From assembly GCA_016184305.1 (NCBI GenBank), contig JACPCX010000128.1:1-34929 (forward strand): a stretch of DNA of 34,929 nt. The letters are read 5' to 3'. Position 1 is the stretch's first letter, and the number at the start of each line of letters is the position of its first letter. This document shows, piece after piece, positions 8,334 through 34,929 of the stretch. The stretch is from Candidatus Rokuibacteriota bacterium (GTDB taxonomy: Bacteria > Methylomirabilota > Methylomirabilia > Rokubacteriales > CSP1-6). A program made the translations under genes and the position numbers. Under the pieces are notes generated by a model. It was given only the letters and a program-made list of their open reading frames with translations, was not told the DNA's origin and ran no database searches.

Positions 8334-8349
8334 TGCAATCATCATGCCC
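8334..8349 (-). promoter_or_regulatory. Sigma54 (-24/-12) promoter for the dksA-like gene
   Basis: Minus strand GGGCAT-GATGA-TTGCA with correct GG-N10-GC spacing. Confidence 0.72.
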
Positions 8350-8601
8350 ACGAATTGCCGAGTTGGACGTCCCCTAAGGTCTCGATATTCAATATTTAGC
8401 CCGAAGGCATGGGGGTCCAGTCGGGCGAAACTCCTACACTCTGCGGGGAAAAAGCGGTACCGCTGTGGCAGGAATTGGCACCCAGTCCCCAGGATGAGAG
8501 GGGACCGCACCGGGGCGTGCTGCAGCCAGAACCATCGCGCCCACCTCCTCGTGAAGCGGCAGGAGGCCGGGTCGAGTCCCCCTGGCTCGGAGCTACGACC
8601 G

Positions 8602-8635
8602 GCGCCAGTTTGGCGTCGAGGCGACATCATGTCGC
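8602..8635. promoter_or_regulatory. Tandem palindromic enhancer (UAS) copy 1
   Basis: GCGCCA-gtt-TGGCGT (8602) and GCGACA-tca-TGTCGC (8621), 19 bp apart; the same arrangement recurs at 27441 and 34457. Confidence 0.8.
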
Positions 8636-8732
8636 TCGCGACCGTGCGGGCGCCGGCGCCGGATGTCCGGGGGCGGCCGGCATCTCCCCGCGAACACTGC
8701 CCTTCGTCGACAGCATTCGCGGAGTGACTGCC

Positions 8733-8748
8733 TGGCACTGGACTTGCG
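8733..8748 (+). promoter_or_regulatory. Sigma54 promoter for the receiver-otsA unit
   Basis: TGGCAC-TGGAC-TTGCG, near-perfect consensus. Confidence 0.85.
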
Positions 8749-8796
8749 AGGGCTCCGCTGCACGAGGAGCGTGCGGGGGATCAGGTGGCGGACGGT

Positions 8797-9048
8797 ATGG
8801 CTCACCGAAGCGTGCTGCTCATTGACGACGACGCCGAGATGGTTGCGGTCCTCCGGGTTGTGCTCGAACAGGAGGGACCCCGCGTCGCCGAGGAGGCCCT
8901 GCGCGGAGGCGCGCACTGCTCCCGGGAAAAACCGTTTCGCATGGTCGAGATCGTGGAGGCCATCGCGAACGAGACGCGCCAGGGGCACCTCATGCTGGGG
9001 GGCGAGCCGACGGGCCGAGGAGGAACGGAGGCAGAGCGCTCCCCATGA
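8797..9048 (+). pseudogene. Single-domain response regulator with internal deletion
   Basis: VLLIDDDAEMVAVLRVVLEQEG joins directly to PRVAEEALRGGA…EKPF; the phospho-Asp and ITAFG segments present in paralog 32646-33041 are missing. Confidence 0.75.
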
Positions 9049-11120
9049 GGATCACGACTCGTCTCGTGGGGGCGATCTGGATCTCGGCGCTGGTCATCAT
9101 GGCCGGATTCGCCTTCTTCCAGGTTCGGGAGGAGCGGGGCCGGCTGGAGCAGGACCTGGCCCGGCGGGCGGCGCTCCTCGGCGAGGGGCTGAAGGAGGCG
9201 GTGGAGCCGGCCGTCCGGAAGGGCTCCGCCCCGACCGTTGCGCGCCTGCTCAAGAAATTCGCGCGCCCCGATCGCCGCATCGCGGTCTATGACCAGTTCG
9301 GGAGTCTTGTGTCCGTGGCGCCGGACATGCCTCGTGCCCTGCCCCCCGCGCTGCCCGAAGTCACGGAGGCGATCACGCTCGGCGCTGCCCAGAAGGGGTT
9401 CCGGACGATCCACGGCGGGAACACGTACGTGTACGCGACGCCGCTCCAGCACGAGGAGCGGTCCACCGGGGCAGTTGCGGTCTTCCTGGACGCCGCCCAT
9501 CTCGACGCCGCCGAGAGCGGGCTCTGGCAGGACAACGCCATTCGCTTCCTGGCCCTTGCGCTTGGCATCTCGGTCGTCGCCCTCTTCGTCGTCCGGGTCA
9601 GCGTGGCGCATCCGCTGTCGGAGATGGCCGAGTGGGCGAAGCGCCTGAGGAACAACCCTGCGCCGCCTCCCCGAACCGCGGATCCTGGGCTGTTCGGCGC
9701 CTTGAGCGTGGAGGTGGCCGGCCTCGCGAGGAAACTGTACCGCGCCCAGGCCGCAGCGGAGCAGGAAGCGGCCCTGCGCCTTGCTGGCGACGTGATCTGG
9801 ACCGAGGAGCGGCTCAAGCAGTTCGTTCGCCTCAGATTCGGCACGCGGCCCCTCTTCGTCGTGTCGAATCGGGAGCCGGTCAGCCACCTCTGGAGGGGCA
9901 AGGAGATCGTGGCCCAGACGCCTGCAAGCGGGGTCGTGACGGCCATGGAGCCGGTGATGCGGGCCTGCGGCGGCGTGTGGGTGGCGCACGGCAGTGGCGT
10001 CGCCGATCGGGAGACGGCGGACGCCAGGGGCCGGCTCGGATTACCCGTGGAGGACCCGCGCTACACGTTGCGGCGCGTGTGGCTCACTCCGGACGAGGAG
10101 GAAGGGTACTACTACGGCTTGTCCAACGAGGGCCTCTGGCCGCTCTGCCATGTCGTCCACGTGCGGCCCGTGTTCCGGCCCGACGACTGGCTGGCATACC
10201 GGGCCGTCAACAAGAAGTTCGCGGAGGCCCTACTCGACGAGATGGCGGGGGTCGAATCCCCGACGGTCGTGATCCACGACTACCACTTCGCGCTGCTCCC
10301 CGCGCTCATCAAGGAGGCGCGGCCCGACGCGCGGGTCGCGATCTTCTGGCATGTTCCGTGGCCCAACGCCGAGGCCTTCGGCATCTGCCCGTGGCAGCGG
10401 GAGATCCTTCTCGGGATGCTGGGGGCGGACCTCATCGGCTTCCACACGCAGTACCATTGCAACAACTTCCTGGATACCGTCGATCGCGCGCTCGAGGCGC
10501 GAGTGGACGCAGAGCACTTCTCGGTGGTGCGTGGCGACCACACCGCCTGCGTCCGACCGTTTCCGATCAGCGTGGCCCCGGACCTCGTGGAGGACCCCCC
10601 GGAGATCTCGCGGAAGGCCCTCCTGGACCAGCTGGGCATCACGGGGGAGTTCCTGGGGGTGGGAGTGGAGCGGGTGGACTACACGAAGGGGCTGCCGGAG
10701 CGCTTCCTGGCGCTCCAGCGGTTCTTCGAGCGCTTCCCCGAATACTGCGAGCGGCTCGTCTTCGTCCAGCTCGGCGCCCCGAGCCGAAGCCGGATCAAGC
10801 GGTACCAGGAGCTCCAGGCGGAGGTCGACGCGACCGTGGACGCCGTGAATCGCGCCCTCGGCACGAAGAGCTGGCAGCCCATCGTGTACCTCAGGCACCA
10901 TCATGACCACCGGGACATCTGGCCCTTCTATCGCCATGCCGACTTCTGCATGGTGACCTCCCTGCATGACGGCATGAACCTCGTCGCCAAGGAGTTCGTC
11001 GCGGTTCGCGACGACGGGGAGGCGGCGCTCATCTTGAGCCGCTTCACGGGGGCCTCGCGGGAGCTGGGCGAGGCCTTGCTCGTGAACCCCTACGACCTGG
11101 ACGAGACGGCCGAGGCGGAG
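9045..11120 (+). pseudogene. otsA: Trehalose-6-phosphate synthase (GT20) with N-terminal TM-sensor-TM-HAMP-like module; C-terminus truncated (ORF runs on to 11411)
   Basis: VVSNREP, WVAHGSG, YYYGLSNEGLWPLCH, IHDYH, FWHVPWP, GVERVDYTKG, SLHDGMNLVAKEF, LSRFTGA, VNPYD; similarity stops at LDETAEA and the final helices are absent. Confidence 0.85.
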
Positions 11121-11242
11121 GCCCGGACACGAGGCGGAGTACGTCACGGCGGGCCGGGCGCGTGCCGACGGGCTGCCGTAGCGTCGAGGACACCCAGGCA
11201 GGACCCGTCCGCCCGTCCCTGGCCTTGCGCTCTCGCGTCCGC

Positions 11243-11607
11243 TCAGCAGGACCGAGGCTCCCGTAGTCCCGATCAGCGACGCCAGGACGGATCCCACCGC
11301 CAGAAAGGCGGTGTTCGTCAGCGGCGTCGCCTCCAGGTCGCCCGTCAGCCGGATGCCGCCGGAGCCGGATGCCGCCGGAGATCGTATAGAGCGCGGCCAG
11401 CAGCAGCATGAAGGACAGATACTCTTCCAGCGTGTGAAGGAGCGCGGTTGGCCGCTGGACGAGGTAGAACCCCGCGACTGGGAGGCCGAGGCCGCAGGAC
11501 ACGAGGAGCTTGTTACGGTTCCGCTCCCACCAATGCGGCACCCACAACGGACAGATGGCGATGGCGACAAGCATCGCCACGAACGGCAGGACCGCATACC
11601 ACGGCAT
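11243..11607 (-). pseudogene. Putative Na+/H+ antiporter-family membrane protein, frameshifted and truncated
   Basis: LPFVAMLVAIAICPL.VPHWWERNRNK…EYLSFMLLLAALYTISGGI, then a frameshift, continuing in another frame as TGDLEATPLTNTAFLAVGSVLASLIGTTGASVLL, then lost. Confidence 0.75.
11347..11380. repeat. 16-bp tandem duplication causing the antiporter frameshift
   Basis: AGCCGGATGCCGCCGG x2 (+AG). Confidence 0.9.
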
Positions 11608-11834: not shown

Positions 11835-12146
11835 CTAGTGGTCTTCGGAGGGCGAGGACGGGTCTGAGAGCGCGTCGGGAGGGCGTCTGGCCGGAAGGAG
11901 GGTCTGCCGGTGATCGACGGTCATGGGGTGCGAACGCGAGAGGGTCCGGACAACGACATGGGGCCGCCCGAGCGTGGGCACGCGGGCGAGGAGCGTAGGG
12001 GCGGACACGCTCTCGGCTCGGGCGCGATCAGCTTGAATCACCTCGACCGAGCCGTCCACGAACTGGACGGCTCCCGGCATCAAGGGATTGGCCACATCCA
12101 GCGAGACATACAGCAAGAGCAAGAGGGAGAAGCGCCGCGCCGACAT
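11835..12146 (-). CDS. Hypothetical membrane-anchored protein (103 aa), probably leaderless
   Basis: MSARRFSLLLLLYVSLDVANPLMPGAVQF…PSSPSEDH; TACAAT -10 hexamer 7 nt upstream of the ATG. Confidence 0.65.
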   Translation of the reverse strand: MSARRFSLLLLLYVSLDVANPLMPGAVQFVDGSVEVIQADRARAESVSAPTLLARVPTLGRPHVVVRTLSRSHPMTVDHRQTLLPARRPPDALSDPSSPSEDH

Positions 12147-12226
12147 GGCCCGCATTGTATCCGATCGGCGCCGTGTGAGCGGTAGGCCGACGACGGAAGC
12201 CGACGCCGGGATGGCGGGCAGGGGCT

Positions 12227-12364
12227 CTATCGCCTGAGGGCGCGCCGCGCCGCATCCACCAGGGCGCGCATCTCCGGGCTCGGCGCCAGCCCCGTGCCGT
12301 GTACGTAGTGGACGCTGAGGCCGCCATCGTCGAGACGGGCGAGCTCCACAGGAGAGCGATCCAC
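12227..12364 (-). pseudogene. Short coding-like remnant (45 aa) of unknown gene
   Basis: VDRSPVELARLDDGGLSVHYVHGTGLAPSPEMRALVDAARRALRR*, strong GC3 bias, GGAG upstream. Confidence 0.35.
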
Positions 12365-12379
12365 GGCTGGCGCTCCGTG

Positions 12380-12614
12380 GCCCTCGGCCTTCCGTCACCG
12401 CCAGAAGCTGCTCGACCAGCGCATTCACCCGGAACGGTTTCTCGACGTAGGCGGTGGCCCCGCGGCGGAGCGCTTCCGCCCTGACGGCCATCCCGCCGAA
12501 GGCGGTGATCACGATGACGTCCGGGCGGGCCGACTCCAGCGCCTGGAGCACCTGCTCGCCCGAGGCCGCCTCGTGCACCTCGAAGCCGTGGCGCTCGAGC
12601 GCCTCGCGGAGCAT
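12380..12614 (-). pseudogene. Single-domain response regulator remnant
   Basis: MLREALERHGFEVHEAASGE…RPDVIV|ITAFGG…AYVEKPF. It lacks the N-terminal acidic strand, the phospho-Asp segment and its own stop codon; end approximate. Confidence 0.75.
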
Positions 12615-12618
12615 GGCC

Positions 12619-13647
12619 CTACCGCCACCGGCCGATGAGGGTCGGCTTCTCCGCCTCGAAGGCTCCGGCGATCTCCTCGAGCGCCTGCTCGATCTCGGCC
12701 GGGGAGCGGTCACGCGTCGCCAGCAGGAAGGCCGCGACCCGGCCCAGGTAGAGGGGGGTCAGCGCCCGCAGCAGATGATCGCTGGGCAGCCGCCGGTCGT
12801 GGTAGGCGACGGCGAAGTCGCCGATCACCCGGGCCCAGAGCCGAGGCGCGAAGCGGAACTCGTCGGGAGCGACGAAGGGCAACGGATAGAGGTCCGTCAG
12901 CGTGGTGTCCGGCATGATCTGCTCCCAGACCGGGAGGAGGTCCTTGAGCCCGAGGCGGAACGCGCGGACCATGCGCTCCACGTCCGGGCCGCCCTGGTCA
13001 GGGAGCATGGTCGCGGGACCTCCGATGAGCGGCACCGCGCGGGCGTCGTGCGCCTCCTGCCAGGCCTCGCGATGGCGCCCCATGAGCGTGAGCAGCGGCC
13101 CCACCGTCTCGGCGACGATGGTCGGCAGGTCGGCCGGTCGCGCCCGCGGGCTGGGCCGCCGCCCGAGATGGACCTGGACTTCCGCCACCGATCGCGTGTA
13201 GGCCGGCAGCGCGCAGTCGGCCCGGCCAGCCGCCACGGGCCCGAGCAGAGCGCGGATCGCCTCGGGGGGCAGCCCGGCCAGCGTCGCATCCAGGAGCACC
13301 GCGCCGCGCACCTCGAGCCGGCCCGCCACCGACAGCAGCGTGCGCAGGGCCTGCCCGGCGTCAGCGTCCGGTCTCGACTCGAGGCAGAGCCGGCTCGCCG
13401 GCTCGGCGCCCGCCCACGAGCGGATCGCATGCATGGCGCCCTGGCGCCATCCCACGGGCAAGGCGAGCACCGCCGCCCGCTGAGCAGGGAAATGCTTCGC
13501 CAGCGCCGTCGCCGCGGCGTCGAGCAGGTCGGTGGTCCCGCCGGCCTCCTCGTCGGCGTACACGGCGGCCACCAGGTCCAGCGGCCCGGCCGCCTCCAGG
13601 GCCGTGAGGCTCTCCGCCGCGAGAGGGAGATCCCCGAGGCTCGCCAT
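12619..13647 (-). pseudogene. GT2-fold glucosylglycerate/mannosylglycerate synthase-like protein, degenerate and apparently internally deleted
   Basis: Conserved C-terminus (WARVIGDFAVAYH…LLRALTPLYLGRVAAF…FEAEKPTLIGRW); abrupt junction PAYTRSV|AEVQVHLG where the central segment is expected; no DxD. Confidence 0.65.
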
Positions 13648-13660
13648 GCCGGGGCGCCTC

Positions 13661-14863
13661 CTAAGCGGTGAGGCTCGCCAGCAGCGCGAGGTAGTCGCCC
13701 AGGTGGCGGGTGACGAGGAAGGTGCGCCGCACGTACTCGCGGGCGGCGCCGCCGAGCCTGGCGATCAGGTCCGGGTCCTCGAGGAGCTGGCGGATGCGGA
13801 ATGCCGCGCCCTCGACCGAGGTGACCCCGTATCCCGTCACCTCGGGGATCAGCTGGGCGGGAATGCCCCCGACCATGCTCGCCACCACGGGCTTGCCCTT
13901 CCACATGGCCTCGGCCACGATCAGCCCAAAATCCTCCTGGAGCGGCTTGTGCACGAGCATCGCGGCGGCCCGCTGCAAGGCGTTCATCTGCAGCTCCGCG
14001 TCCGGCGGGAGAACCAGCACATGGACATCGGGATCGTCCGCTGCCGCCTCGCGCACCTGCGCGAGCACGGTGGTGCCCTCGGGGTTGTCGGTGGCTCCCC
14101 ATCCCGCCAGGACGAGGCGGCAGGCCACGTACTTCTTCGCGAGGCGGTAGGCGCGGAGCACGCCCGGGAGATCCTTGCTCCGGGCATAGGGGGCCACCGT
14201 GAGGAGCAGGGGCTTGTCGCGGGGGACCCCGAGCTGCTCCAGGGTCTGGTCGATCTCCCGGCGGGTGAGATCCCGGTTGCGGTCGCTCAGGGGATCCACC
14301 GACGGGTGGACGATCAGGGTCGGGATGGGCAGGCGCTGGGCGAACTTCGGGAGCGAGAACACGGCGGCGTCATAGTGCTCCACGTCGCGGCGGACCAGGT
14401 ACCAGGCCCGCCGGTACGCCGCCGAGAGGTCGCCGTGGTAGCGCCACACCCACCGCCCCCGCTCCGGGCGATGATGGACGAGGCCGAGCGGTGCGGCGTC
14501 GTGGACCATGACGAGGTCGGCCTCGAGCCCGAGCCGCGACGCGTTGGCGCCGGCCGTCTCGCGGAACCCGTGGAGCATGGTCTCGGTGACCGGCTCCTCG
14601 AGGCCCGCGAGGGCCATGTCGAGGTGCCGGGCCGCGGCGTAGAACGCCGGGTCGCCCACGATCACCTCCCATGCCGCGTCGATTCCGAGTTCCTGCATCA
14701 TCGGGACCAGCCGGTTGAGGATAGCCGGCGAGCCGGCTCCGAAACGGCTGGCGTTGACGTGGAGGAAGCGGCGCCCCCGGAGCCGCTCGGCGAGACGCAC
14801 CAGGAGATCGATGGTCCCTCGCGGGGCGACCTCCCGGTAGGCGTCGAGACGGCCCGGGCTCAC
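13661..14863 (-). CDS. TreT-like GT4 glycosyltransferase with divergent motifs (400 aa)
   Basis: HVNAS, VHD..P, WVWR.H, PSVDPLSDRN, ATDNPEG, NALQRAA, EDFGLIVAEAMWKGKPV…GGIP; GTG start overlaps the upstream stop. Confidence 0.85.
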   Translation of the reverse strand: MSPGRLDAYREVAPRGTIDLLVRLAERLRGRRFLHVNASRFGAGSPAILNRLVPMMQELGIDAAWEVIVGDPAFYAAARHLDMALAGLEEPVTETMLHGFRETAGANASRLGLEADLVMVHDAAPLGLVHHRPERGRWVWRYHGDLSAAYRRAWYLVRRDVEHYDAAVFSLPKFAQRLPIPTLIVHPSVDPLSDRNRDLTRREIDQTLEQLGVPRDKPLLLTVAPYARSKDLPGVLRAYRLAKKYVACRLVLAGWGATDNPEGTTVLAQVREAAADDPDVHVLVLPPDAELQMNALQRAAAMLVHKPLQEDFGLIVAEAMWKGKPVVASMVGGIPAQLIPEVTGYGVTSVEGAAFRIRQLLEDPDLIARLGGAAREYVRRTFLVTRHLGDYLALLASLTA

Positions 14864-17031
14864 CGGCCGCCCCCCGGCAGCGCCTGGTCCACCAGGCGGA
14901 TCAGGCGGGCGCGAGTGCGCTCGAGGCTGCCGCCGTAGGGGCTCACTGAGCGCACGCGCGCGGCCAGCTCGGGCAGACCGAGCCTCTGCTCCAGCCACGC
15001 CGCGAAGTCGTTCTGCCGTCGGCCCAGCCGCATCCGCGCCTCGACCAGGTGGAAGTAGATAGCGCTGGAATCGACCTCGAGGAGCGCCCGGCGGAAGTCC
15101 GCGAGGTTGCGCACCTCGACACCCGTGGGGATCTCCACGATGCGCGAGCGGACGAAGTCGAAGGGGTCGGCCGAGACGACCCCGGGGACGACGGGCATCT
15201 CCCGCAGATGGGCGTCGATGACCGCCACCAGCTCCTCCCGCAGGGCCTCGAGCGTCGGGAACTCCGCCGGGTCCACCATGGCGAGGCGCTCGCCCAGCAC
15301 CTGGTCGCGCACCTGCACGGCCGCCCAGGTCGCGAAGTCGTTGGGGTAGATGCCGGCAGCGAACTTGTGGCGCAGCAGGAAGCCGTGGGTGTGGAAGTAG
15401 ATCGAGTCCACGGGAACCTGGTCGATGAGCTCGGCCAGCTGCCGCTCGTTCTCGGCCCTCACGCCCACAAACTCCCGCAGCTCGAGGCAGGCGACGAAGC
15501 GGAACGGCCCCGCGCCGGGCCCGAGCCGGTCGGGCGCAGGGCGCGCGGCGGGCGCCGCAGCCCGCCGGAGGCCGGCCAGCGGGATGCGGGCCCAGCCCGG
15601 GCGGTGATCCAGCTCGTAAAGCAGCTCGTAGGCGGCCTTGTCCAGCTCGAAGACGCGCAGCGCGGCGTTCAGCGTCTCCTGCTGTCGCGGCAGGAACCCG
15701 ACGCCGCGCTCGAGCGTCTCTGCCAGGTACCCCTCGAGGAAGGCCTCGCGAACGCCGTCCTCCCAGGCCTCTGCCCAGGGCCCGAGCCGGTCGGCCTGCC
15801 GCGGCTGCGCCGGCGCGGCGTCGGCGGCGCGAAGCAGCGCCGCCCGGGCCGCGTAGGCGAATGACCGCAGCATTCCCGCGACGTCGCGCAGGGCGCAGGT
15901 CTTGTGGCGCCGCAGCTCCAGGGAGCGCGCCGGCTCGCCCTCGAAGTCCACCACGGCGAAGCCGCCCGGAGCCCGCAGGATCTGGCCGAGGTGGTAGTCG
16001 CCGTGGACGCGGATCTTCAGGACGGCCGCGTCGGCGAGGCTCTGGAGCGCGGCCAGGCCCTCGCGCAGGGCGGGGAGGTGCTCGAGCACCTCTCGCGCCA
16101 GCCCGTGCGCGTCGGCGGGCAGCTCGTCCACCGCCTGCCCCAGCGCCTCTCCGACCCGGTCCAGGCGGGCACGAATCTCCTGCTGCCACCCGAGGACGTC
16201 GGCCAGCCCGATGGGCTCAGGCCCCAGCGGAGATCCCAGCGGGGCCGAGGCCAGCGCCCGGTGCAAGCGGCCCGTGAGAAGCCCCAGCGCGTGGGCCTCC
16301 TTCGCGTCCGCCGATGCCAGCGCCTGCGCGAACGCGGGATCGGAGGCGCCGTCGGGCTCGGGACCGCTGCCCGCCGCCGCGTAGTACTCGTCCAGGCGCG
16401 CCTGCACCGCCGCCCAGGCATCGCCCTCGGTCGGAAGGAACTCGTGAAGCGTGGCCAGGGTCGTGGGCTCGTCTCCCTCACCCTCGTAGACGAGGAAGCC
16501 CGCCAGCCGTGGCGCTTCGCGGAAGTCGGTCTCCTCGGTGAGGTGGCGCGTGAGCTCCAGCTCGGGGTTCGCACCTGGCTCGAGCCGGCGGAAGACCTTG
16601 AGGAAGGCCCGTTGCTCCAGCACCCGCGAGGTGTTGCTCTGCTCGACGCCCACCGGCTTCACCGAGCGGACGGGATCGGGCAGGAGCTCCGGCAGGAAGG
16701 CGGTGGCGCCGAACCGGAAGCCGCCGCACCGGCCCGCCAGCGTGCCCCCGGCGCGCATCTGCTCCACCACGGCGGCGCAGAAGCCCGGATCGTCGAGGGC
16801 GTCGGCCAGCGCGCCCCCGCGGGGCGCGCCTCCCGCCAGGGCCACGAGGTAGGTCTCGGGGTCGCCCACCTCGAAGTCGACACGGAACAGGGCGAGCGTC
16901 CCAGCGCTGCCCGGCACCTCGACGTGATCCACGGCCCTCACGGCCGTGATCCGCCGTGACTTGCTTCCGAACCAGCGCTGGCGGGGCAGGACGCTCGCGA
17001 GGGCCGTCGCCGTGCTGGCGAGGTCCGGCAC
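14860..17031 (-). CDS. Maltokinase (Mak/Pep2) fused to C-terminal DUF5752 (723 aa)
   Basis: LPRQRWFGSKSR, EQSNTS, FLKVFRR..PG.NPELE, IRVHGDYHLGQIL, DFEGEP, RDVAGMLRSF, ELDKAAYELLYE; then a duplicated SIY(F)H…NDFA.W domain. Confidence 0.9.
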   Translation of the reverse strand: MPDLASTATALASVLPRQRWFGSKSRRITAVRAVDHVEVPGSAGTLALFRVDFEVGDPETYLVALAGGAPRGGALADALDDPGFCAAVVEQMRAGGTLAGRCGGFRFGATAFLPELLPDPVRSVKPVGVEQSNTSRVLEQRAFLKVFRRLEPGANPELELTRHLTEETDFREAPRLAGFLVYEGEGDEPTTLATLHEFLPTEGDAWAAVQARLDEYYAAAGSGPEPDGASDPAFAQALASADAKEAHALGLLTGRLHRALASAPLGSPLGPEPIGLADVLGWQQEIRARLDRVGEALGQAVDELPADAHGLAREVLEHLPALREGLAALQSLADAAVLKIRVHGDYHLGQILRAPGGFAVVDFEGEPARSLELRRHKTCALRDVAGMLRSFAYAARAALLRAADAAPAQPRQADRLGPWAEAWEDGVREAFLEGYLAETLERGVGFLPRQQETLNAALRVFELDKAAYELLYELDHRPGWARIPLAGLRRAAAPAARPAPDRLGPGAGPFRFVACLELREFVGVRAENERQLAELIDQVPVDSIYFHTHGFLLRHKFAAGIYPNDFATWAAVQVRDQVLGERLAMVDPAEFPTLEALREELVAVIDAHLREMPVVPGVVSADPFDFVRSRIVEIPTGVEVRNLADFRRALLEVDSSAIYFHLVEARMRLGRRQNDFAAWLEQRLGLPELAARVRSVSPYGGSLERTRARLIRLVDQALPGGGR

Positions 17032-27440: not shown

Positions 27441-27474
27441 GCGACACCGTGACGCTCCAGCGACATCGTGTCGC
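27441..27474. promoter_or_regulatory. Tandem palindromic enhancer (UAS) copy 2
   Basis: GCGACA-ccg-TGACGC (27441) and GCGACA-tcg-TGTCGC (27460), 19-bp period, centred between divergent sigma54 promoters. Confidence 0.82.
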
Positions 27475-27529
27475 CGGATCCGCTGCCTCCGACTTCCGAT
27501 CAGGTCCGCCCCACCAGCGTTTCGGGGCG

Positions 27530-27545
27530 TGGCGCAGCCGTTGCA
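27530..27545 (+). promoter_or_regulatory. Sigma54 promoter for treZ
   Basis: TGGCGC-AGCCG-TTGCA, 30 nt before the treZ start; AAGGAGG RBS at 27561. Confidence 0.82.
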
Positions 27546-27575: not shown

Positions 27576-29309
27576 GTGACCACGTTCACAGTGTGGGCCC
27601 CTCGCGCCGGCCAGGTAGAGCTGACAATCGGGACCCGGCGCATCGCCATGAGCCCCCGCGGCGACGGGTGGTGGAAGGTCGAGGAGCCCTCGGCCGCCCC
27701 GGGAACCGATTATGGCTTCGCGCTGGACGGGAGCCCGCCGCTGCCCGATCCGCGCTCCCCATGGCAGCCGGCGGGGGTGCACGGGCCATCGAGAGTCCTG
27801 GACCACGGAGCCTTCACCTGGAGCCATGCGCGGTGGCAGCCGCCACCGCTCGCGGCCGCGGTGATCTACGAGCTCCATGTGGGGACGTTCACCGGGGCCG
27901 GCACCTTCGAGGCCGTGGTCGACCGGCTCGATCACCTTGTGAGCCTGGGCGTCACCCATGTAGAGCTGATGCCGGTGGTCGAGTTCCCGGGCGCGCGGGG
28001 CTGGGGCTACGACGGGGTGGATCTCTTCGCCCCTCACCATGGCTGCGGGGGGCCGGTCGGCCTCAAGCGCCTCGTGGACGCCTGTCACGGCCGGGGCCTC
28101 GCGGTGATTGTCGACGTCGTCTTCAACCACCTGGGCCCCGCGGGGAATTACGTGGGTCGCTTCGGTCCGTACTTCACTGATCGCTACCGGACGCCGTGGG
28201 GAGAGGCCGTGAACCTGGACGCGGCGGAGAGCGACGAGGTCCGGCGCTTCCTCTGCGACAACGCGCTCATGTGGCTCCGGGACTACCACATGGACGGACT
28301 CCGCATCGACGCCGTGCACGCCATGCTCGACCGCTCGGCGACGCATGTCCTGGAGCAGCTCGCCGCCGAGGTGCGGGCGCTGGAGGCGCATCTCGGCCGC
28401 CACCTGGTCCTGATTGCCGAGAGCGACCTCAACGACCCGCGGCTGGTCCAGGCCCCGGTCGCGGGCGGCTACGGCCTCGACGCCCAGTGGAACGAGGACT
28501 ACCATCACGCCCTCCATGCCCTGCTCACGGGCGAGCGCCAGGGGTACTACGCCGATTTCGGCGGGATGCCGGATGTGGCCGCGGCACTCCGGGAGGGCTT
28601 CGTCTATGCGGGCCGGCGGTCGGCCTATCGCCGCCGGCGGCACGGGCGCGCGGCGACCGGGCTCGGCGGGCAGCGCTTCGTGGGATGTCTGCAGAACCAC
28701 GATCAGGTGGGCAATCGCGCTCGCGGCGAGCGGATGAGCCAGCTGGTGGGGCCCGGGCGCCTCATGATCGGCGCCGCCCTGGTCCTGACCGCACCCTTCG
28801 TGCCCATGCTCTTCCAGGGCGAGGAGTGGGGAGCGCGGACGCCGTTCCAGTACTTCACCGACCACGACGACCCGGCGCTCGGCGCCGCGGTGCGAGATGG
28901 CCGGCGGCGCGAGTTCGCCGCCTTCGGCTGGAACCCCGAGGAGGTGCCGGATCCGCAGGCGCCCGAGACCTTCGAGCGGTCGCGGCTGGACTGGAGCGAG
29001 CCGGCCCGCGAGCCGCACGCGAGCCTCCTCGCCTGGCACCGAGACCTGATCCGGCTGCGGCGTGCCCAGGCTGCGCTGTCGGACGGACGCATGGACCTCG
29101 TCCGGGTGGACTGGGACCAGCCGGCGGGCTGGATGCGCATCGAGCGGGGGGCGCTCACCGTTGCCGTGAACCTCGGAGCCCGGCGCCAGCCGGTGCCCCT
29201 GGGCCAGGAGCGGCCGCGCCGCCCGCTCCTGGCCTCGAGCCCCGAGATCGCCTTCGAGCCGACGGGGATCGCCTTGCCTCCCGACTCGGTGGCCGTGCTC
29301 GGGCCGTGA
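27576..29309 (+). CDS. treZ: Malto-oligosyltrehalose trehalohydrolase (577 aa)
   Basis: FTVWAP, PDPRS..QP.GVHGPS, IYELHVGTFT, WGYDGV, GLRIDAVHA, IAESDLN, QNHDQVGNR, PMLFQGEEWG. Confidence 0.96.
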   Translation: MTTFTVWAPRAGQVELTIGTRRIAMSPRGDGWWKVEEPSAAPGTDYGFALDGSPPLPDPRSPWQPAGVHGPSRVLDHGAFTWSHARWQPPPLAAAVIYELHVGTFTGAGTFEAVVDRLDHLVSLGVTHVELMPVVEFPGARGWGYDGVDLFAPHHGCGGPVGLKRLVDACHGRGLAVIVDVVFNHLGPAGNYVGRFGPYFTDRYRTPWGEAVNLDAAESDEVRRFLCDNALMWLRDYHMDGLRIDAVHAMLDRSATHVLEQLAAEVRALEAHLGRHLVLIAESDLNDPRLVQAPVAGGYGLDAQWNEDYHHALHALLTGERQGYYADFGGMPDVAAALREGFVYAGRRSAYRRRRHGRAATGLGGQRFVGCLQNHDQVGNRARGERMSQLVGPGRLMIGAALVLTAPFVPMLFQGEEWGARTPFQYFTDHDDPALGAAVRDGRRREFAAFGWNPEEVPDPQAPETFERSRLDWSEPAREPHASLLAWHRDLIRLRRAQAALSDGRMDLVRVDWDQPAGWMRIERGALTVAVNLGARRQPVPLGQERPRRPLLASSPEIAFEPTGIALPPDSVAVLGP

Positions 29310-29330
29310 CCGCTCCGGGCGGGGCACCAG

Positions 29331-29546
29331 CTACCCCCCGAGGGCTCCGGCCGTGAGCCCGCTCACGATGCGGCGCTGCAGCAGCAGGACCACGACCACC
29401 ACCGGCACCGTCACGATGACCGAGGCGGCGGCGATCTCGCCCCAGGGGAATTCCTCGATGCCCGGGAAGAAGGCGATGGCCACCGTTACGGTCTGCACCC
29501 GATCGGCGCCCGCCAGCGTCAGCGCCAGCAGGAACTCGTTCCACGA
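29331..29546 (-). pseudogene. C-terminal remnant of carbohydrate ABC permease (MalG-like)
   Basis: [11 protein letters not shown]…[35 protein letters not shown]. Confidence 0.85.
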
Positions 29547-30456
29547 GCGGTGCATGAGCGCGCGGCCCTCAAGAAACTCCTGCAGGCTGTCGTGCTCGGC
29601 GTAGGTGAGGACGCCGGGCGAGGCGGCTCCGGGATGTCTCAGCAGAGTCCACGGCGACCCCACCGTCTTCGCCCAGGAGTCTGCCGCCCATCGCCCGCAG
29701 GATCTCCAGGAAGTTGACCACCAGGCCCTCGTACTGCTTGCCCTGGAAGACGTACCCGGAGCGCCCGGTGGTGCCCAGGGCGGTCGCGACCCGGACGAGC
29801 TCCGGCCACGAGCGCGGCGGCGCCGGCAGCACGTCGCGCCGGTAGTACAGGAGGCCCGACTCGGTGAAGCGCGGCAGTGCCCACAGCCGCCCGCCCCAGG
29901 CCGCCGAGGCCAGCGGCGCCCGCAGGAAGGCCGCCCGCTCCCCGGCGGTGAGCTCGGCGCCGGCCGGCCTGATCCATCCGGCCGCGGCGAACTCCGCCGT
30001 CCAGATCTGGTCGATCTGGTAGACGTCCACCCCGGAATCCCGCGCCGCGAGCCACGTGACGAACTGCTGGTGCTGGACGTCAGAGGCATTGGGGAGCGTC
30101 CGCTGGCGCACCCGGACCCCGGTGCGCGCGGTGAAGGTCGCCAGGAGCTGAGCCTCGCTGGCGGGGTCCCGAGGCTTGAACTGGGCGAGCGTCACCGTCT
30201 CGGCATCCGCCGGCATCCAGCCGGCGATTCCGAGCGCCAGGGTCAGGAGCGCCAGCGGCGGTTTCCTGGCCCGGCCGCCGGTCCTCACTCGCAGAAGCAG
30301 GGCGGTCCCCGCGATCCCCGCCAGGAGTCCCACGGCGAGGGGCGCCCTCCAGTCGACCTGCTCGAAGATGCTGGGGTGGCGGCTCGGCAAAGAGACGTTC
30401 AGAAGCCGCTCGGCGCTCACCGCGAGAAGTAGCCACCCCAGGATGGTGCGCCGCAT
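29541..30456 (-). pseudogene. Trehalose/maltose-type ABC substrate-binding protein, broken and truncated
   Basis: [43 protein letters not shown]; frame change near 29635 into [25 protein letters not shown], which fuses to the permease remnant. Confidence 0.85.
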
Positions 30457-30460
30457 CCGC

Positions 30461-31171
30461 CTACAGATGCGTCAGCGTCTCGTGGGAGTGTGGCTCCCGG
30501 TCCCGTCTCAGGCGGCGCTCGAGGATCTCGCGGGCCAGGTGGCGCCCCCCCAGCCCGAAGGCCAGGGCCGCGGCCAGCACCAGCCCGCCGAAGGTGAGCC
30601 CGAAGGCGAGGAGCACGATCTCCTTCGCCAGGCCCAGGTGGGTGACGGCCATGGCCACGGCGAAGAGCAGCAGGCCCCAGCGCACCCCGCGCGCGAGGAG
30701 GCGCGCCTCCGGCAGCCCCGCGTTGACGGCGGCGATCAGGACGCCCTGGGCCAGGAAGTGGGCGAGGAGCCAGCCGATGAGCAGGATGAGAAGCGCTCCG
30801 AGCGCCGTGGGCAGCCAGACGAAGACGAAGGCCGTGACCCGCTCGGTGCCCGGCACCGCCATGGCGTCCACGGCCAGCGTGGCGAAGAGGAGGAAGATCC
30901 CCCAGAAGATGACAAGCCCGAACAGCTGCGACGGGGGGCGCGAGATGCCTTCCCGCCTGAGGAGGGACGTTCCGAGCCCCCAGGTCTCGGCGCGGCGGTC
31001 AAGGTCCACGGCGCGGGCCAGCCTCTGGCAGAGCCTGGCGCCGGCCCACGCGAGCAGGAGGCCGACCCCTACCAGGACGATGAGGGCGAGCACGGCGGGC
31101 ACGATGCCGAGCAGCCGCTCGCCCACCGTGCCCAGCGTCCTCAGCGCGGCGTCGCTCCACCCCGCGTTCAT
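30461..31171 (-). CDS. CmpX-like/conserved-TM-helix mechanosensitive-channel-associated membrane protein
   Basis: Repeated P...ALxIL.IGW helices; C-terminal LAAALAFGLGGR motif. Confidence 0.8.
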   Translation of the reverse strand: MNAGWSDAALRTLGTVGERLLGIVPAVLALIVLVGVGLLLAWAGARLCQRLARAVDLDRRAETWGLGTSLLRREGISRPPSQLFGLVIFWGIFLLFATLAVDAMAVPGTERVTAFVFVWLPTALGALLILLIGWLLAHFLAQGVLIAAVNAGLPEARLLARGVRWGLLLFAVAMAVTHLGLAKEIVLLAFGLTFGGLVLAAALAFGLGGRHLAREILERRLRRDREPHSHETLTHL

Positions 31172-31539
31172 GGCCGGGCTCCCGCTTCGGGCGCCGCGAC
31201 CCCGGGCCTCGGGAGCCGGCTCCTGTGAGTGGGTGGCCCGCCGCTGGATGGGGTTGGTCTCGGGCGGGGCGGCCGGACGACGAGGCCGCGACCGGCCCGC
31301 CCGTCCCGAGCATCGAGCGTGGCGCGGTCGAGGGCGCTGGCGACAGCCGGGTCCAGCAGCAGGATGGCCAGGCCCCCGTGGGTAACCGCGCTATCGCCAG
31401 GGTTGGGGACTCCGGGAAGCAGGCCCAGGCGGCCGGGTGGTCCCAGGACCATCCGGAGGGCCATGTCGGGATGGGAGAGGTTCGCCTCATTCCGGAGCGC
31501 GAGCAGGTAGTCTCGAGCCTGTGGCGTGACGTTCATCAT
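31168..31539 (-). CDS. HesB/IscA-fold protein lacking cysteines
   Basis: GGAGG RBS; MNVTPQA..L…ALR…PGD..V…ILLLD..VA..LD.ATLD pattern. Confidence 0.6.
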   Translation of the reverse strand: MMNVTPQARDYLLALRNEANLSHPDMALRMVLGPPGRLGLLPGVPNPGDSAVTHGGLAILLLDPAVASALDRATLDARDGRAGRGLVVRPPRPRPTPSSGGPPTHRSRLPRPGVAAPEAGARP

Positions 31540-31569
31540 CGGTGTGTCCTCCGTGCGCATGCGCGATGT

Positions 31570-31585
31570 CGCCCCCACGGTGCCA
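31570..31585 (-). promoter_or_regulatory. Possible weak internal sigma54 promoter
   Basis: TGGCAC-CGTGG-GGGCG: correct spacing but poor -12 element. Confidence 0.25.
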
Positions 31586-31608
31586 CGACTCGGGAGCGCA
31601 AGTCATGC

Positions 31609-32649
31609 TCACTCATCGCGTGTTTTCGGGCCGGTCCCGTCAGCCTGCTGCAGGACCACCGTACGCACCGGGTAGGGGATCTCGATGCCCTCGGCCCGGA
31701 ACCGCGCCAGGATGCGCTTCCGCAGCTCGTGCTGCGCCAGGTACTGGTCCACGAACGAAGCGACCTGGCAGATGAGGGTGAAGTCCAGGGAGTGGTCGCC
31801 GAAGCCAGGGATGAAGCGGACGAAGGGGCGCGGCTCGTCGAGGAGGCCCGGGACCTCAGCGGCGGCCTTCATCGCCTCCTCGACCAGGACGCGCTCCACC
31901 TGATCGGGGTCCGCCTGATAGCTGACGCTGACGGGCACCAGCAGCGACATCCGGGGCTCGGGCAGGTTGAAGTTGGTGATGATGGCCTTGGCCATCGTCT
32001 GATTGGGGATCACCACCACGTTGTTGGGCAGCGTGCGGATATGCGTCGAGCGCCACCCGATGTCCAGGACATAGCCCTCCACGCCGGAATCGAGCTTGAC
32101 GTAGTCGCCGACGGCGATCGGGCGATCGGCCAGGAGGTGGATCCCGGCGAAGAAGTTGGCCAGCGAGTCCTGGAGCGCGAGGGCCACGGCGAGGCCGCCC
32201 ACGCCGAGGGCGGTGAGAATCGGAGTGACGGTCAAGCCAAGCGTGGAGAGTACGACCAGCGTTCCGACGGCGATGGTGGCGAAGCGGACGATGGTCTGCC
32301 CGAGCCCCGTGACAGCCGCCGTCAGGCCCAGGCGCCCGCCCTGATGCGCGGTGACGAGCGCGAGGGCGGCCGCCAGGCTGAGCGTGACCGAGGCGATCAG
32401 CAGGGCCTCGATCCACAGCTCGAAACGGGCCGCGGCCCGCACCGGAAGATCGGCGACCTGGAGCGCACCGTATCCTCCGAGCACGAAACACCACAGGAGG
32501 GACGGCAGCCGCGCCGGCCGGACCAGCTGCTGCGCGGTCTCCCGCCGCGACAGTGCCCGCAGAAGCACCCAGCGGGCCAGGAGCGCCACGATGATGATGG
32601 CGGTGCCCGTGAGGATCGGCGTCATGAGGGCCGGCGACCAGCGGATCAT
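31609..32649 (-). CDS. mscS: Small-conductance mechanosensitive channel
   Basis: LGVGGLAVALALQDSLANFFAG, VGDYVKL.SG.EG.V.DIGWRST, IPN, GIEIPYP. Confidence 0.93.
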   Translation of the reverse strand: MIRWSPALMTPILTGTAIIIVALLARWVLLRALSRRETAQQLVRPARLPSLLWCFVLGGYGALQVADLPVRAAARFELWIEALLIASVTLSLAAALALVTAHQGGRLGLTAAVTGLGQTIVRFATIAVGTLVVLSTLGLTVTPILTALGVGGLAVALALQDSLANFFAGIHLLADRPIAVGDYVKLDSGVEGYVLDIGWRSTHIRTLPNNVVVIPNQTMAKAIITNFNLPEPRMSLLVPVSVSYQADPDQVERVLVEEAMKAAAEVPGLLDEPRPFVRFIPGFGDHSLDFTLICQVASFVDQYLAQHELRKRILARFRAEGIEIPYPVRTVVLQQADGTGPKTRDE

Positions 32650-33041
32650 GAATCGTCCCGCGTCCCCGGGGCGCAGGCCACCCGGCCGAGCGGCAGGAGT
32701 CGGCGCACCTGCTGCAGCAGCGCGTCCGTGCTGAACGGCTTCTCGATGTACGCCACGGCGCCCAGCCGGAGCGCCTCGTCCCGCACCGCCGAGCCGCCGA
32801 AGGCCGTGATCAGGATGACCGGCAGTCCGCGATGTCGCCTGGCGATGTAGGAGAGCAGGTCGAGCCCGCTCGGCCCCGGCATCTCCTTGTCCATCACGAT
32901 GAGATCCGGCACCTCCTTTTCGAGCGCCTCGACCAGCAACTCGCCGCTGGCCTCCTCGCGGACATCGAGCCTGTCTAGGGTCAGCATGTCACGCAGGAGA
33001 GCGCGCATGTCGGCGTCGTCGTCAACGACCATCACGACCAT
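32646..33041 (-). CDS. Single-domain response regulator (intact)
   Basis: VVDDD…MDKEMPGPSGLDLL…ITAFGG…YIEKPF. Confidence 0.9.
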   Translation of the reverse strand: MVVMVVDDDADMRALLRDMLTLDRLDVREEASGELLVEALEKEVPDLIVMDKEMPGPSGLDLLSYIARRHRGLPVILITAFGGSAVRDEALRLGAVAYIEKPFSTDALLQQVRRLLPLGRVACAPGTRDDS

Positions 33042-33132
33042 GCTGGCCCTCCAGCTTCAGGAGCCGGCCTTCCAGCTCCTGCAACCTCCCCAGGGCTTGA
33101 TCGACCTTCCCCGGCATCACTCTCCGCGCCAT
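33022..33132 (-). CDS. Small coiled-coil-like peptide (36 aa)
   Basis: AGAGGAGG RBS; MARRVMPGKVDQALGRLQELEGRLLKLEGQHGRDGR; overlaps the receiver start. Confidence 0.5.
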   Translation of the reverse strand: MARRVMPGKVDQALGRLQELEGRLLKLEGQHGRDGR

Positions 33133-33195
33133 CGGTCGTCCTCCTCTTCAGGGCGCCGGCTCCGCACCCGGTCGCGACCCGGGTTGCCTTCTGGC

Positions 33196-34308
33196 TCAGC
33201 CCAGGTTCCCAGACGCGGCATGGATCCTGACGACCGGCGGCGTCCACCTCTCCCTGCCGGAGATGTCAGGGCCGAGCCCTGACAGGACGCCCCGCAGAGG
33301 CCGTGACGGCCGCCGCCGCGCGACGCTGCCCATACGCGCGAGCCACGGAGTCGGGAGCGCCAGCCGGCGGGCCAGTCTCAGGACGCGGCGTGGCGTTCCC
33401 AGATCCGACCAGGTGAGCGCGGGCATCTGGGCCACCATCAGCTCCGGCGGGCACCGCTCGAGCACCGCCCGCGAGAAATTGGCGGCCGGCGCCGGCGCAT
33501 AGGCTTGCCGGATCGCCCAGCGCTCATGCTCCGTGTCGAAGAAGGCCGACAGCGGGGCCAGTCGCGCGTGCAGCAAGGGCAGATAGCGGCGGCCGAGATC
33601 CACCAGGGCCCGCGCCGTGGCCACGAGCACGAAGGTATTCCAGAGGCAGCCGCGGCGGAGGCACTCGACGGCCTGCGCCGGCGAGGGCTTCTCCCAGAAC
33701 CGCTTCGCCCGCCAGATGGGCCCCGCGCCTGTCGCGCCGACCTGGGCGCCCGGCTCGATCCAGCCGTACTGGGTGTCGGGCGTGTCGGCAAGCGCGCCGA
33801 GGAGCACCACCCAGGTGGGGTGGGCCCGGGCCGCGGCGGCCACGTCTTCGACATGGGCCATGAATCGCTCGGCATCGTCGATGAAGTGATCCGAGGGCAG
33901 CACCACGACGATGGCCTCCGGATCCTGCCGGGAGACCCAGTGCACCGGGAGGAGGACACCAGCGGCAGTCCCACGGTCGGCGGGCTGCTCCAGCACGCGC
34001 GGCATCAGCCCCTGCTCGATTTCACGCATGATATAGCCTGCGTGCTCGTCCACGGTGACCGCCACGGTCCGTGCGAGCGGGATTGCTCTGGCCGCGCGGT
34101 CCAGCGTCTGCCGAAGAAGCGAGCGTGCGCCCAGGACTGCGGCGAACTGCTTCGGGCGCGCCTCTCCATGGATCCGCCTGGTCAGGGGGCGCAGGCGCAT
34201 CCCCTGGCCGCCAGCCAGCACCACGGCCCAGAGCCGAGCGTCCTCACCGATCCAGCCGGGCGATTCCTGGACTGCCTCCCGCGTCCGATCGAGATCCTGC
34301 GCAACCAT
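33196..34308 (-). CDS. Mannose-1-phosphate guanylyltransferase-like nucleotidyltransferase
   Basis: AGGAGG RBS, ATG 34308; VLAGGQGMRL.PL, PKQF, RGTA, PSDH, FWEKP, WN, WSDLGT. Confidence 0.88.
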   Translation of the reverse strand: MVAQDLDRTREAVQESPGWIGEDARLWAVVLAGGQGMRLRPLTRRIHGEARPKQFAAVLGARSLLRQTLDRAARAIPLARTVAVTVDEHAGYIMREIEQGLMPRVLEQPADRGTAAGVLLPVHWVSRQDPEAIVVVLPSDHFIDDAERFMAHVEDVAAAARAHPTWVVLLGALADTPDTQYGWIEPGAQVGATGAGPIWRAKRFWEKPSPAQAVECLRRGCLWNTFVLVATARALVDLGRRYLPLLHARLAPLSAFFDTEHERWAIRQAYAPAPAANFSRAVLERCPPELMVAQMPALTWSDLGTPRRVLRLARRLALPTPWLARMGSVARRRPSRPLRGVLSGLGPDISGRERWTPPVVRIHAASGNLG

Positions 34309-34364
34309 GATCGCGTCCTCCTGACGATCGCCCGCCAGCGCCCGCGATCGCCAAGGATCGGTAT

Positions 34365-34380
34365 CGCAAGGATCTTGCCC
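34365..34380 (-). promoter_or_regulatory. Sigma54 promoter for the nucleotidyltransferase-receiver-mscS operon
   Basis: Minus strand GGGCAA-GATCC-TTGCG. Confidence 0.75.
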
Positions 34381-34456
34381 GTTCTGTCGCTTGGGAAATA
34401 CGGCGAGTCCATCGTGGGTTACGGGCGCTGACGCCAGCTCGACGTGGTGTCTTCGG

Positions 34457-34490
34457 CCGACAACTTGGCGCCCCGGCGACAACTTGACGC
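34457..34490. promoter_or_regulatory. Tandem palindromic enhancer (UAS) copy 3
   Basis: CCGACA-act-TGGCGC (34457) and GCGACA-act-TGACGC (34476), 19-bp period. Confidence 0.8.
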
Positions 34491-34508
34491 CCGGGGCGGC
34501 GAGGGCAG

Positions 34509-34929
34509 TCAGAGATCCTGGGCCCGGCGCTGGAGCGTCCGGACGGAGACGCCCAGGATGCGCGCCGCCGCCTGCTTGTCGCCGCCGGCTTCCTCGAGCA
34601 CCCGGCGGACGTACTGGCGCTCGAGCTCGCCCAGGGTGGGCCTTATGGAGGGCAGGCCCGTGTCCATCGAGAACTCCGTACCGAGGTCGGCGAGATGGAT
34701 CAGGGGCCCCTTCGCGAGCACCGCGGCCCGCTCGACGACGTTCTCGAGCTCGCGCACATTGCCCGGCCACCGATGCGCGACCATCCAGGTGGCTGCCTCC
34801 TCGGAGAACCCCGTGAGGGTCTTGCCGAGCCGCCGGGCGGCGCGCTGGAGGAAGTGGGCGGCGAGCAGCGGGATGTCCTCGGGCCGCTCGCGGAGAGCGG
34901 GCAGCCTCACGGGGATGACTGCGAGCCGG
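34509..34929 (-). CDS. Sigma54-dependent (NtrC/Fis-family) enhancer-binding activator, C-terminal part
   Basis: RLAVIPVRLPALRERPEDI, WPGNVRELENVVERA, Fis-type HTH GGDKQAAARILGVSVRTLQRR; 5' end outside window. Confidence 0.93.
   Translation of the reverse strand, partial: RLAVIPVRLPALRERPEDIPLLAAHFLQRAARRLGKTLTGFSEEAATWMVAHRWPGNVRELENVVERAAVLAKGPLIHLADLGTEFSMDTGLPSIRPTLGELERQYVRRVLEEAGGDKQAAARILGVSVRTLQRRAQDL

Follow-up and report, generated by a model that had tools for sequence, protein, structure and literature searches.

Within a 34,929-nucleotide stretch of DNA from Candidatus Rokuibacteriota bacterium (order Rokubacteriales; assembly GCA_016184305.1, contig JACPCX010000128.1), here called the window, three tandem pairs of a 15-bp palindrome with the consensus GCGACA-N3-TGTCGC accompany predicted sigma54 (−24/−12) promoters of trehalose, alpha-glucan and mechanosensitive-channel genes. 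We consider it likely that these paired sites form the enhancer of an NtrC-family activator encoded at the right edge of the window, which would govern stress-protection genes via sigma54. Sequence comparison points to a sigma54 regulon that is real and spans the order, with an activator that has likely been identified and output genes of a stress type. The source genome (G000; 3.2 Mb, 88.8% complete, 70% G+C in the window) was compared with relatives, numbered G001 onward; C88, C168, C171 and C221 are other contigs of G000, and L-numbers designate the loci examined.

A paired site with a fixed period

The earlier note on this DNA had described six palindromes arranged as three intergenic pairs sharing a 19-bp period. 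All six were found in place, only two of them exact: mismatches to the consensus were 3/0 (8602/8621), 1/0 (27441/27460) and 2/1 (34457/34476). Single sites with up to three mismatches were not enriched in this DNA (28 observed versus 33.4 expected), so the signal resides in the pairing. When G000 was scanned for pairs with at most three mismatches per site, four in total, and periods of 15 to 40, five pairs were returned at 19 bp, one at 24, one at 36 and none at the remaining 23 periods. The period is thus specific genome-wide, with five pairs in all.

The earlier note had suggested scanning the genome and its relatives with a matrix built from the six sites. A paired matrix was trained on 116 pairs with the G000 and G001 loci excluded. 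It recovered the same five G000 pairs at 29.9–37.8 bits, all intergenic by our own gene calls, and gave no further G000 match above 12 bits at period 19. At periods of 17, 18, 20, 21 and 22, matches of at least 18 bits numbered 0, 1, 0, 1 and 0, respectively. Across relatives the period-19 pairs co-occurred with outward −24/−12 boxes, as detailed below. The two pairs outside the window lie at C221:863, 93 bp before a −24/−12 box followed by an alpha-amylase-family gene, and at C88:2910, ahead of the operon that encodes the activator itself. Site 1 is identical in G001, and the 27.4-kb region recurs almost unchanged in the Candidatus Rokubacteria locus L055.

Of the order's 183 genomes, 62 contain the tandem pattern with one mismatch allowed, and 3 contain a reversed-pattern control; the pattern was not found in any of 68 genomes from the phylum's other orders. 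Many genomes of family f1 show one pair, and genus g21 reaches up to 13; G028 has 13 and G030 has 4. A strict GTDB-wide scan returned 47 stretches, mostly from Pandoraea and Rokubacteria, with a few others carrying a box. The Pandoraea loci (L052, L053, L056, L057 and others) hold a near-perfect GCGACA tandem of 19-bp period in one intergenic region in many genomes; the nearby sigma54 box was never better than 5/8.

Outward sigma54 boxes at phased distances

Boxes were scored with a regulon-derived matrix or, alternatively, by eight consensus positions, of which at least six had to match. The loci examined yielded at least 124 distinct pairs, a subset of the total matches, and 122 had enough flanking sequence for tests. 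The possibility that pairs are equally common inside coding sequences, raised in the earlier note, did not hold: 115 of the 122 were intergenic, against a background of 16.5%. An outward-facing box (6/8 or better) lay within 230 bp of 88 of the 122 pairs versus 4.1% of 3000 random intergenic positions, and boxes pointed outward far more often than inward (104 versus 11), only 6 of the 104 being more than 200 bp from the pair. The gaps between pair and box clustered near 41, 52, 63, 73, 84 and 94 bp. Phase at 10.5 bp gave R 0.45 (n=99 gaps), a value matched by none of 2000 jittered sets; with one gap per target cluster (53 clusters), R was 0.50. Such helical phasing is expected of a looping enhancer and not of a repeat or a hairpin.

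Each window pair had been said to lie upstream of a −24/−12 promoter. The GG-N10-GC core is indeed present at all five boxes; the one at 34365–34381 is weak, and the leftward box ending at 8350 is ∼250 bp off. The pair at 27.4 kb is, as claimed, nearly equidistant from its two divergent boxes (54 and 51 bp), yet 11 of the 88 box-bearing pairs have a box on each side, so this symmetry is nothing special. The leftward box between the C88 pair and the activator operon is weak (6.1 bits, 95 bp off), and the receiver open reading frame (ORF) in between is degenerate.

The activator at the right edge is the likely reader

The window ends within the activator gene. Contig C88 overlaps the right end by 99 bases and holds the rest of the gene, its kinase and the fourth pair, and in G001 the 442-residue activator is unbroken, with the kinase and both flanking pairs on one contig. 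The protein has a receiver–AAA+–Fis-type helix-turn-helix (HTH) architecture (PF00158, E 1.3e-66) with intact receiver acidic pocket and phospho-Asp, Walker A/B, GAFTGA and arginine finger. It fell below all named NCBIfam cut-offs (AtoC 432.6/714, NtrC 387.6/558.6, ZraR 381.3/760), and we rejected its assignment as an NtrC, ZraR/HydG, AtoC or GlrR orthologue, since the curated thresholds were not reached. The nearest solved structures are 1ojl (ZraR) and 4l4u (an Aquifex NtrC-family regulator).

G000 encodes one rpoN and about 20 sigma54-activator matches, among which the edge activator stands apart. In a tree whose root serves drawing only, ten orthologues formed a single clade (support 100/99) that excludes 14 further activators of G000. 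The recognition helix G[VIL]S[VL]RTLQR was present in 39/39 orthologues listed and in 0/17 other G000 activators listed, and identity to the orthologue query was bimodal, at least 59% and then at most 53%.

The motif was found in 48 of the 61 genomes with an orthologue and in 14 of the 122 without, counts that are patterns and not p-values because related genomes are not independent. Eight of the 13 genomes with activator only have a pair and box at a looser threshold. Ten of the 14 motif-only genomes were rechecked, and 3 of these carry the activator helix in a partial or shifted gene. A pair lay within 5 kb of 34 of 56 activator C-termini, and within 200 bp of 17. No pair was found at 19 other G000 activator loci or at 10 loci of a second activator. 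Co-occurrence, physical linkage and the clade-specific helix thus agree with the proposal that the right-edge activator is the likely reader of the sites, and we infer that it binds them. Pairs with boxes upstream of kinase–activator operons in several genomes suggest feedback.

A coupled kinase and a shared sensor module

A HAMP–HisKA–HATPase kinase gene on C88 lies directly upstream of the activator and overlaps its start, and the two are neighbours in relatives too. Given this coupling and conserved order, the C88 kinase is likely the cognate kinase. The kinase at 23776–25347, earlier taken as the probable feeder of the activator, is a paralogue and could serve as a second input at most. 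The H-box helix HE[VI]GTPLN[IV]ISGRAE is shared by these two alone of the 15 G000 kinases that a pattern search caught, which makes cross-phosphorylation possible. Of the loci examined, just the G001-type one contains a close homologue of the 23776 kinase.

The predicted structure of the kinase part comprising transmembrane (TM) helix, sensor, second TM helix and HAMP (predicted local distance difference test score, pLDDT, 86) best matched the extracellular PAS/Cache domain of WalK; Pfam matched this sensor part to Cache families weakly, and in only two of 32 members. OtsA begins with 270 residues that form a module of the same type as the kinases' sensor (29%, E 7e-11). This TM–Cache-like–TM–HAMP-like module spans 9045–9850 in the window and was also seen at L106, L170, L236 and L277; G000 holds a second sensor-fused OtsA gene at C171:5327–7618. 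Sensor–OtsA fusions also cluster in Acidobacteriota and Methylomirabilota, and a literature search found no description of a sensor-fused trehalose-phosphate synthase.

Predicted targets in the window

The features of the window are collected in Table 1. The earlier note had named otsA, treZ, the mscS operon and dksA as targets. The first three are supported. The dksA assignment is weak: its box is ∼250 bp from the pair, and a search for a nearer pair gave none (best score −20). Nor is the protein DksA proper. It scored 53 bits against a DksA cut-off of 115.5, and its tip reads DEVDLI, lacking the DxxDxA motif that is the hallmark of DksA. In G028 and G025 a dksA-like gene does lie inside a pair-headed run.

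Table 1. Coordinates of the paired sites, predicted promoters and genes in the window.
Feature	Coordinates	Strand	Remarks
DksA/TraR-type zinc-finger protein	7862–8272	−	below DksA cut-offs; doubtful target
Predicted sigma54 box, dksA/traR-like gene	8334–8350	−	12.4 bits; ∼250 bp from site 1; link uncertain
Tandem site 1 (two 15-mers, 19-bp period)	8602–8635	.	matrix 31.4 bits
Predicted sigma54 −24/−12 box	8732–8748	+	18.2 bits; 96 bp from site 1; ahead of receiver-like ORF and otsA
Short degenerate receiver-like ORF	8797–9048	+	no Pfam/NCBIfam match
OtsA-type trehalose-6-phosphate synthase with N-terminal membrane sensor–HAMP-like module	9045–11411	+	
Gene run, possible target of leftward 27.4-kb promoter	12619–26645	−	
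HAMP–HisKA–HATPase kinase, paralogue of C88 kinase	23776–25347	−	39% over 381 aligned positions; possible second input
glgM-type glycosyltransferase with in-frame internal deletion	26725–27264	+	179 aa versus 396 aa in G001; antisense to leftward promoter
Predicted sigma54 box	27373–27389	−	12.1 bits; 51 bp left of site 2
Tandem site 2	27441–27474	.	matrix 37.8 bits
Predicted sigma54 box	27529–27545	+	14.8 bits; 54 bp right of site 2; ahead of treZ
treZ	27576–29309	+	TIGR02402 above cut-off
Gene run: nucleotidyltransferase (33196–34308), receiver-only protein, mscS, 136-aa ORF, MscS-type TM protein, sugar-binding protein	29569–34308	−	
Weak predicted sigma54 box	34365–34381	−	below 9 bits; 5/8 consensus positions; 75 bp from site 3
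Tandem site 3	34457–34490	.	32.8 bits; 18 bp past activator stop codon
Activator C-terminal part (AAA+ lid and Fis-type HTH, helix GVSVRTLQR)	34509–34929	−	rest on contig C88

Downstream of the leftward box at 27389 comes the 3′ end of glgM, in antisense, and no sense gene. We looked for a real gene there and rejected the ORF starting at 27348, which has a near-zero codon score and no homologue beyond G000- and G001-type loci. Between 26300 and 27600 neither a terminator-like site nor a sigma70 −35/−10 site was found. In relatives, pairs directly head glgX–treY, so the 27389 box is probably the old promoter of the run of kinase, treY, glgE, treS, maltokinase and treT. That run (12619–26645) comprises a glgX remnant (26364–26645), a 188-residue ORF, a receiver protein (25361–25747), the kinase, treY, glgE, treS, a maltokinase–DUF5752 gene, treT and a 342-residue ORF. 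The glgX remnant is 93 codons long and joins the gene start to the gene end. The glgM deletion is located at a short direct repeat and is bridged by contigs of two samples from one study, one possibly the source. Both lesions suggest that the alpha-glucan route of this strain is decaying. At the third site, the position following the activator gene carries good boxes in relatives.

Several further observations concern the gene neighbourhood. Two sugar ATP-binding cassette permease-like genes that follow treZ in G001 (L101:16208–17874) are largely gone at 29309–29830, leaving the binding protein alone. A broken second copy of the receiver and 188-residue-ORF module of 25361–26361 lies at 11835–12713, with a more complete copy in G001. 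A NarL-type two-component system and two genes for MauG/MbnH-like di-haem enzymes occupy positions 1–6344; they have no relation to the regulon.

Predicted targets in relatives

Across relatives, the first three genes past the promoters include otsA, otsB, treT, treY, treZ, glgX and mscS, as well as genes for CsbD, BON, DUF1328 and PRC proteins, Ku, topoisomerase IB, Fe/Mn superoxide dismutase (SOD) and encapsulated ferritin. As first target, receiver-only proteins occur most often (13). No nitrogen-assimilation families were found among the targets scanned. Hallmark outputs of general stress responses (csbD, mscS, ku, trehalose, BON) are present in relatives, with G000 showing only trehalose/glucan genes and mscS.

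Two side observations touch these target runs. In G168, a group-2-like sigma70 factor (L221:3254–4582) sits in the run downstream of a pair-headed promoter, an arrangement that makes a sigma54-to-sigma70 cascade possible. In G028, a gas-vesicle (gvp)-like cluster, judged by eye, lies beside a pair (L242, C4 147–157 kb) in a 50-kb island with eight pairs.

An RpoS-like gene alongside the regulon

The earlier note had placed the sigma54 system in lieu of RpoS, SigB and EcfG. Eight sigma70-family matches were found in G000: RpoD, a second group-2-like factor, an RpoS-like ORF and five that are like extracytoplasmic function (ECF) factors. No SigB/F/G was above cut-off in G000, and PhyR exceeded its cut-off in none of five genomes. 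The G000 RpoS-like ORF (C168; L028:1195–1950) follows a peptidoglycan-hydrolase-like gene and encodes 251 residues without region 4, a break read from the assembly together with similar truncations in G002 and G003, where the gene encodes 221 residues. Of the four genomes of the genus (L028 and L290–L292), three have a truncated or degenerate copy and the fourth has a copy with a run of N. In other genera it is 313–323 residues long in 26 of the 30 loci read, eight of them in motif-bearing genomes, and it measures 334–335 residues in the motif-bearing G028 and G030. RpoS was the best family for two of three intact proteins tested, all below cut-off. Replacement therefore fails for the order: an intact RpoS-like gene exists alongside the regulon, truncated only in this genus, and the regulon works beside the RpoS-like sigma factor in most relatives and does not replace it. 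As a side observation, a gene for a short sigma factor beside an anti-sigma-like one in G028 (L326; C4 5–8 kb) looks actinobacterial by eye and may be contamination.

We also examined trehalose genes in genomes that have no orthologue of the activator. At 6 of 20 such treY loci another activator, with the helix GTTPKTLHNK, was found together with many sigma54 boxes and GGTAA-N3-TTACC-like sites 21–24 bp apart; nine of the 20 had no intergenic sigma54 box. At L262–L266 and L275, this unrelated sigma54 activator and its GGTAA-N3-TTACC-like sites accompany overlapping target genes, and a regulator swap is possible. The paralogues of the second activator grade from 54 to 72% identity, and mutual exclusion with the first activator was set aside as a reading for that reason.

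A proposed mechanism and the points against it

Bacterial enhancer-binding proteins place two dimers on two sites, assemble an AAA+ ring and reach the sigma54 holoenzyme by DNA looping. Under the preferred reading, in which the right-edge activator uses the paired sites as its enhancer, an envelope or osmotic signal would lead the C88 membrane kinase to phosphorylate the activator, with the 23776 kinase as a possible second phosphodonor. The phosphorylated activator, on its paired sites, would open sigma54 promoters 40–110 bp off, switching on trehalose and alpha-glucan enzymes and MscS channels, and in relatives also CsbD, BON, Ku and SOD. Pairs upstream of the kinase–activator genes would provide positive feedback, and receiver-only proteins might damp the signal by drawing off phosphate.

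A number of observations weigh against this reading. The G000 boxes after site 3 and leftward on C88 are both weak, 34 of the 122 pairs have no box of at least 6/8 within 230 bp, and 20 held-out gaps showed the same phase without being significant alone (R 0.31). Five activator genomes (G141, G047, G043, G068 and G020) lack a pair in the DNA examined, G141 genome-wide at two mismatches. Conversely, 7 of the 10 rechecked motif-only genomes have no activator; six are 68–78% complete, and G177 is 91% complete. The motif itself was the route by which some activator loci were retrieved, 12 of 18 pairless loci are shorter than 4.4 kb, and the dependence among related genomes noted above applies to the co-occurrence counts. 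Several targets in G000 itself are damaged (glgM, glgX and two receiver ORFs). No Pfam family was assigned to 43 of the 115 downstream proteins scanned (representatives, of 164 clusters), so that the term 'general stress' applies to the named targets. Finally, treY occurs in 123 of 183 genomes, and 0 of the 20 treY loci from orthologue-free genomes had a pair and box; trehalose genes accordingly do not need this activator.

Alternative explanations

The alternative that survives best, which we judge improbable, keeps the activator and its sites and confines them to a narrower carbon-storage and osmotic regulon, partly decaying here, in place of a general stress response. The five G000 pairs indeed serve only trehalose/glucan, mscS and signalling genes, and many family-f1 genomes have a single pair. 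A pair lies 20–140 bp upstream of only 4 of the 78 intergenic sigma54 boxes in G000, and the damaged targets fit decay. Against this scope stands genus g21, in which up to 13 pairs precede csbD, BON, DUF1328, PRC, Ku, topoisomerase IB, SOD and encapsulated ferritin genes.

We likewise give little credence to the original proposal that the 23776–25347 kinase is the main input and that the sigma54 system replaces RpoS, SigB and EcfG. The H-box helix that this kinase shares exclusively with the C88 kinase, the truncated RpoS-like genes of the genus, and the failure of SigB/F/G and PhyR to exceed their cut-offs would all fit. It is the C88 kinase, however, that overlaps the activator start and adjoins the activator in relatives, whereas the 23776-type kinase is otherwise confined, among the loci examined, to the G001-type locus. 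Full-length RpoS-like genes in other genera, including motif-bearing genomes, argue against replacement, as does G003, which has a truncated RpoS-like gene yet neither motif nor orthologue by the queries used.

It is very unlikely that the sites are real and bound by some other protein, be it another of the ∼20 activators, a Fis-like protein or a repressor. The number of activators in G000, the seven motif-bearing genomes without a detected orthologue and the near-identical Pandoraea tandem lacking a good sigma54 box would favour such a binder; against it stand the co-occurrence, the pairs within 200 bp of 17 of 56 activator ends and near none of the 19 others, and the clade-specific helix. 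That the element is a REP-like (repetitive extragenic palindromic) repeat, an RNA hairpin or a chance product of 70% G+C is barely credible: it is self-complementary and its single sites are at chance level, but free positions pair at 0.355 versus 0.321 in column-shuffled controls (maximum 0.379), no excess, on which ground we rejected the hairpin/REP reading, and outward boxes, phased gaps and the reversed-pattern control speak against repeat and chance.

Wider meaning

The mechanism itself, a tandem site read by an AAA+ activator of sigma54, is ordinary. General stress responses of the textbook kind are under the control of sigma70-family factors. In this abundant uncultured order of soil and groundwater, the same output genes appear to belong to a sigma54 two-component system. 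Dozens of small proteins without annotation are picked out by the site as likely products of stress genes, and the named activator, kinase, consensus, spacing rule and 124 candidate sites are directly testable.

More tentatively, Rokubacteriales may run general stress via sigma54 with swappable master activators: GCGACA pairs in about one-third of the order, and, in another genus, an unrelated reader of GGTAA-N3-TTACC-like sites at trehalose loci. In this speculative and somewhat doubtful scheme the same sensor sits on kinase and OtsA, and the RpoS-like gene is being lost in this genus as sigma54 takes over. If true, one signal received through the shared sensor module would steer both transcription and OtsA enzyme activity.

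Comparison with known systems

The earlier note did not recognise the motif as described. Our literature searches found, in the text passages that they covered, no account of the site, and none of a sigma54-run trehalose/stress regulon in Rokubacteria.

The activator shares the receiver–AAA+–Fis-HTH build with GAFTGA of NtrC-type activators such as enteric NtrC, ZraR/HydG and the Aquifex regulator. The NtrC box, GCACCA-N3-TGGTGC, is likewise a dyad with a 3-bp centre, and its regulon consists of nitrogen-assimilation targets. The present system differs in its half-site, its fixed 19-bp period, its stress-protection targets and its failure to reach any named-family cut-off. Membership of an NtrC regulon was rejected, as half-site position 3 is G in 100% of pairs (a position fixed by the search pattern) and nitrogen-assimilation targets are absent from those scanned. 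Genome G008 (L111–L114) does hold four NtrC-box-like GCACCA-N3-TGGTGC pairs with the same 19-bp period, each with a sigma54 box 79–87 bp away, and kinase or receiver genes follow three of them.

In the parts of the source consulted, the closest studied 15-bp G+C-rich dyad is that of NmpR from Myxococcus xanthus, GCGCA-N5-TGCGC, with 14–15 nt between sites in five of seven bound promoters (PMC11841059). As here, the dyad occurs twice per promoter, is mostly intergenic and sigma54-dependent, and lies upstream of the regulator's own putative operon (PMC11841059). NmpR differs in its core, its oxygen-use genes and its phosphorelay input, and only 4 nt separate the sites here; with neither core nor spacing matched, membership of the NmpR regulon was rejected. 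Two-component sigma54 activator DVU3305 of Desulfovibrio vulgaris is labelled 'General stress response, transmembrane transport' in the portion consulted, where, unlike the present regulon, it controls only two operons (PMC4641369). The five supplements of that paper contained no mention of trehalose, and GCGACA/TGTCGC only in unrelated contexts.

Among kinases, the predicted fold of the TM–sensor–TM–HAMP part resembles WalK-type PAS/single-Cache kinases. Identity is only 17%, cytoplasmic PAS is lacking and the partner is a sigma54 activator, unlike in the WalK type.

RpoS-, SigB- and EcfG-type general stress responses have trehalose genes, BON/OsmY and DUF1328 among their outputs, and alphaproteobacterial stress systems include many receiver-only proteins. 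The present regulon resembles them in output and departs from them in its driver, which would be sigma54 with one activator acting at −24/−12 promoters and no sigma70-family factor, the RpoS-like gene being separate. The likeness extends to csbD, mscS and ku, which the consulted part of a published account includes in the EcfG regulon (PMC7083833).

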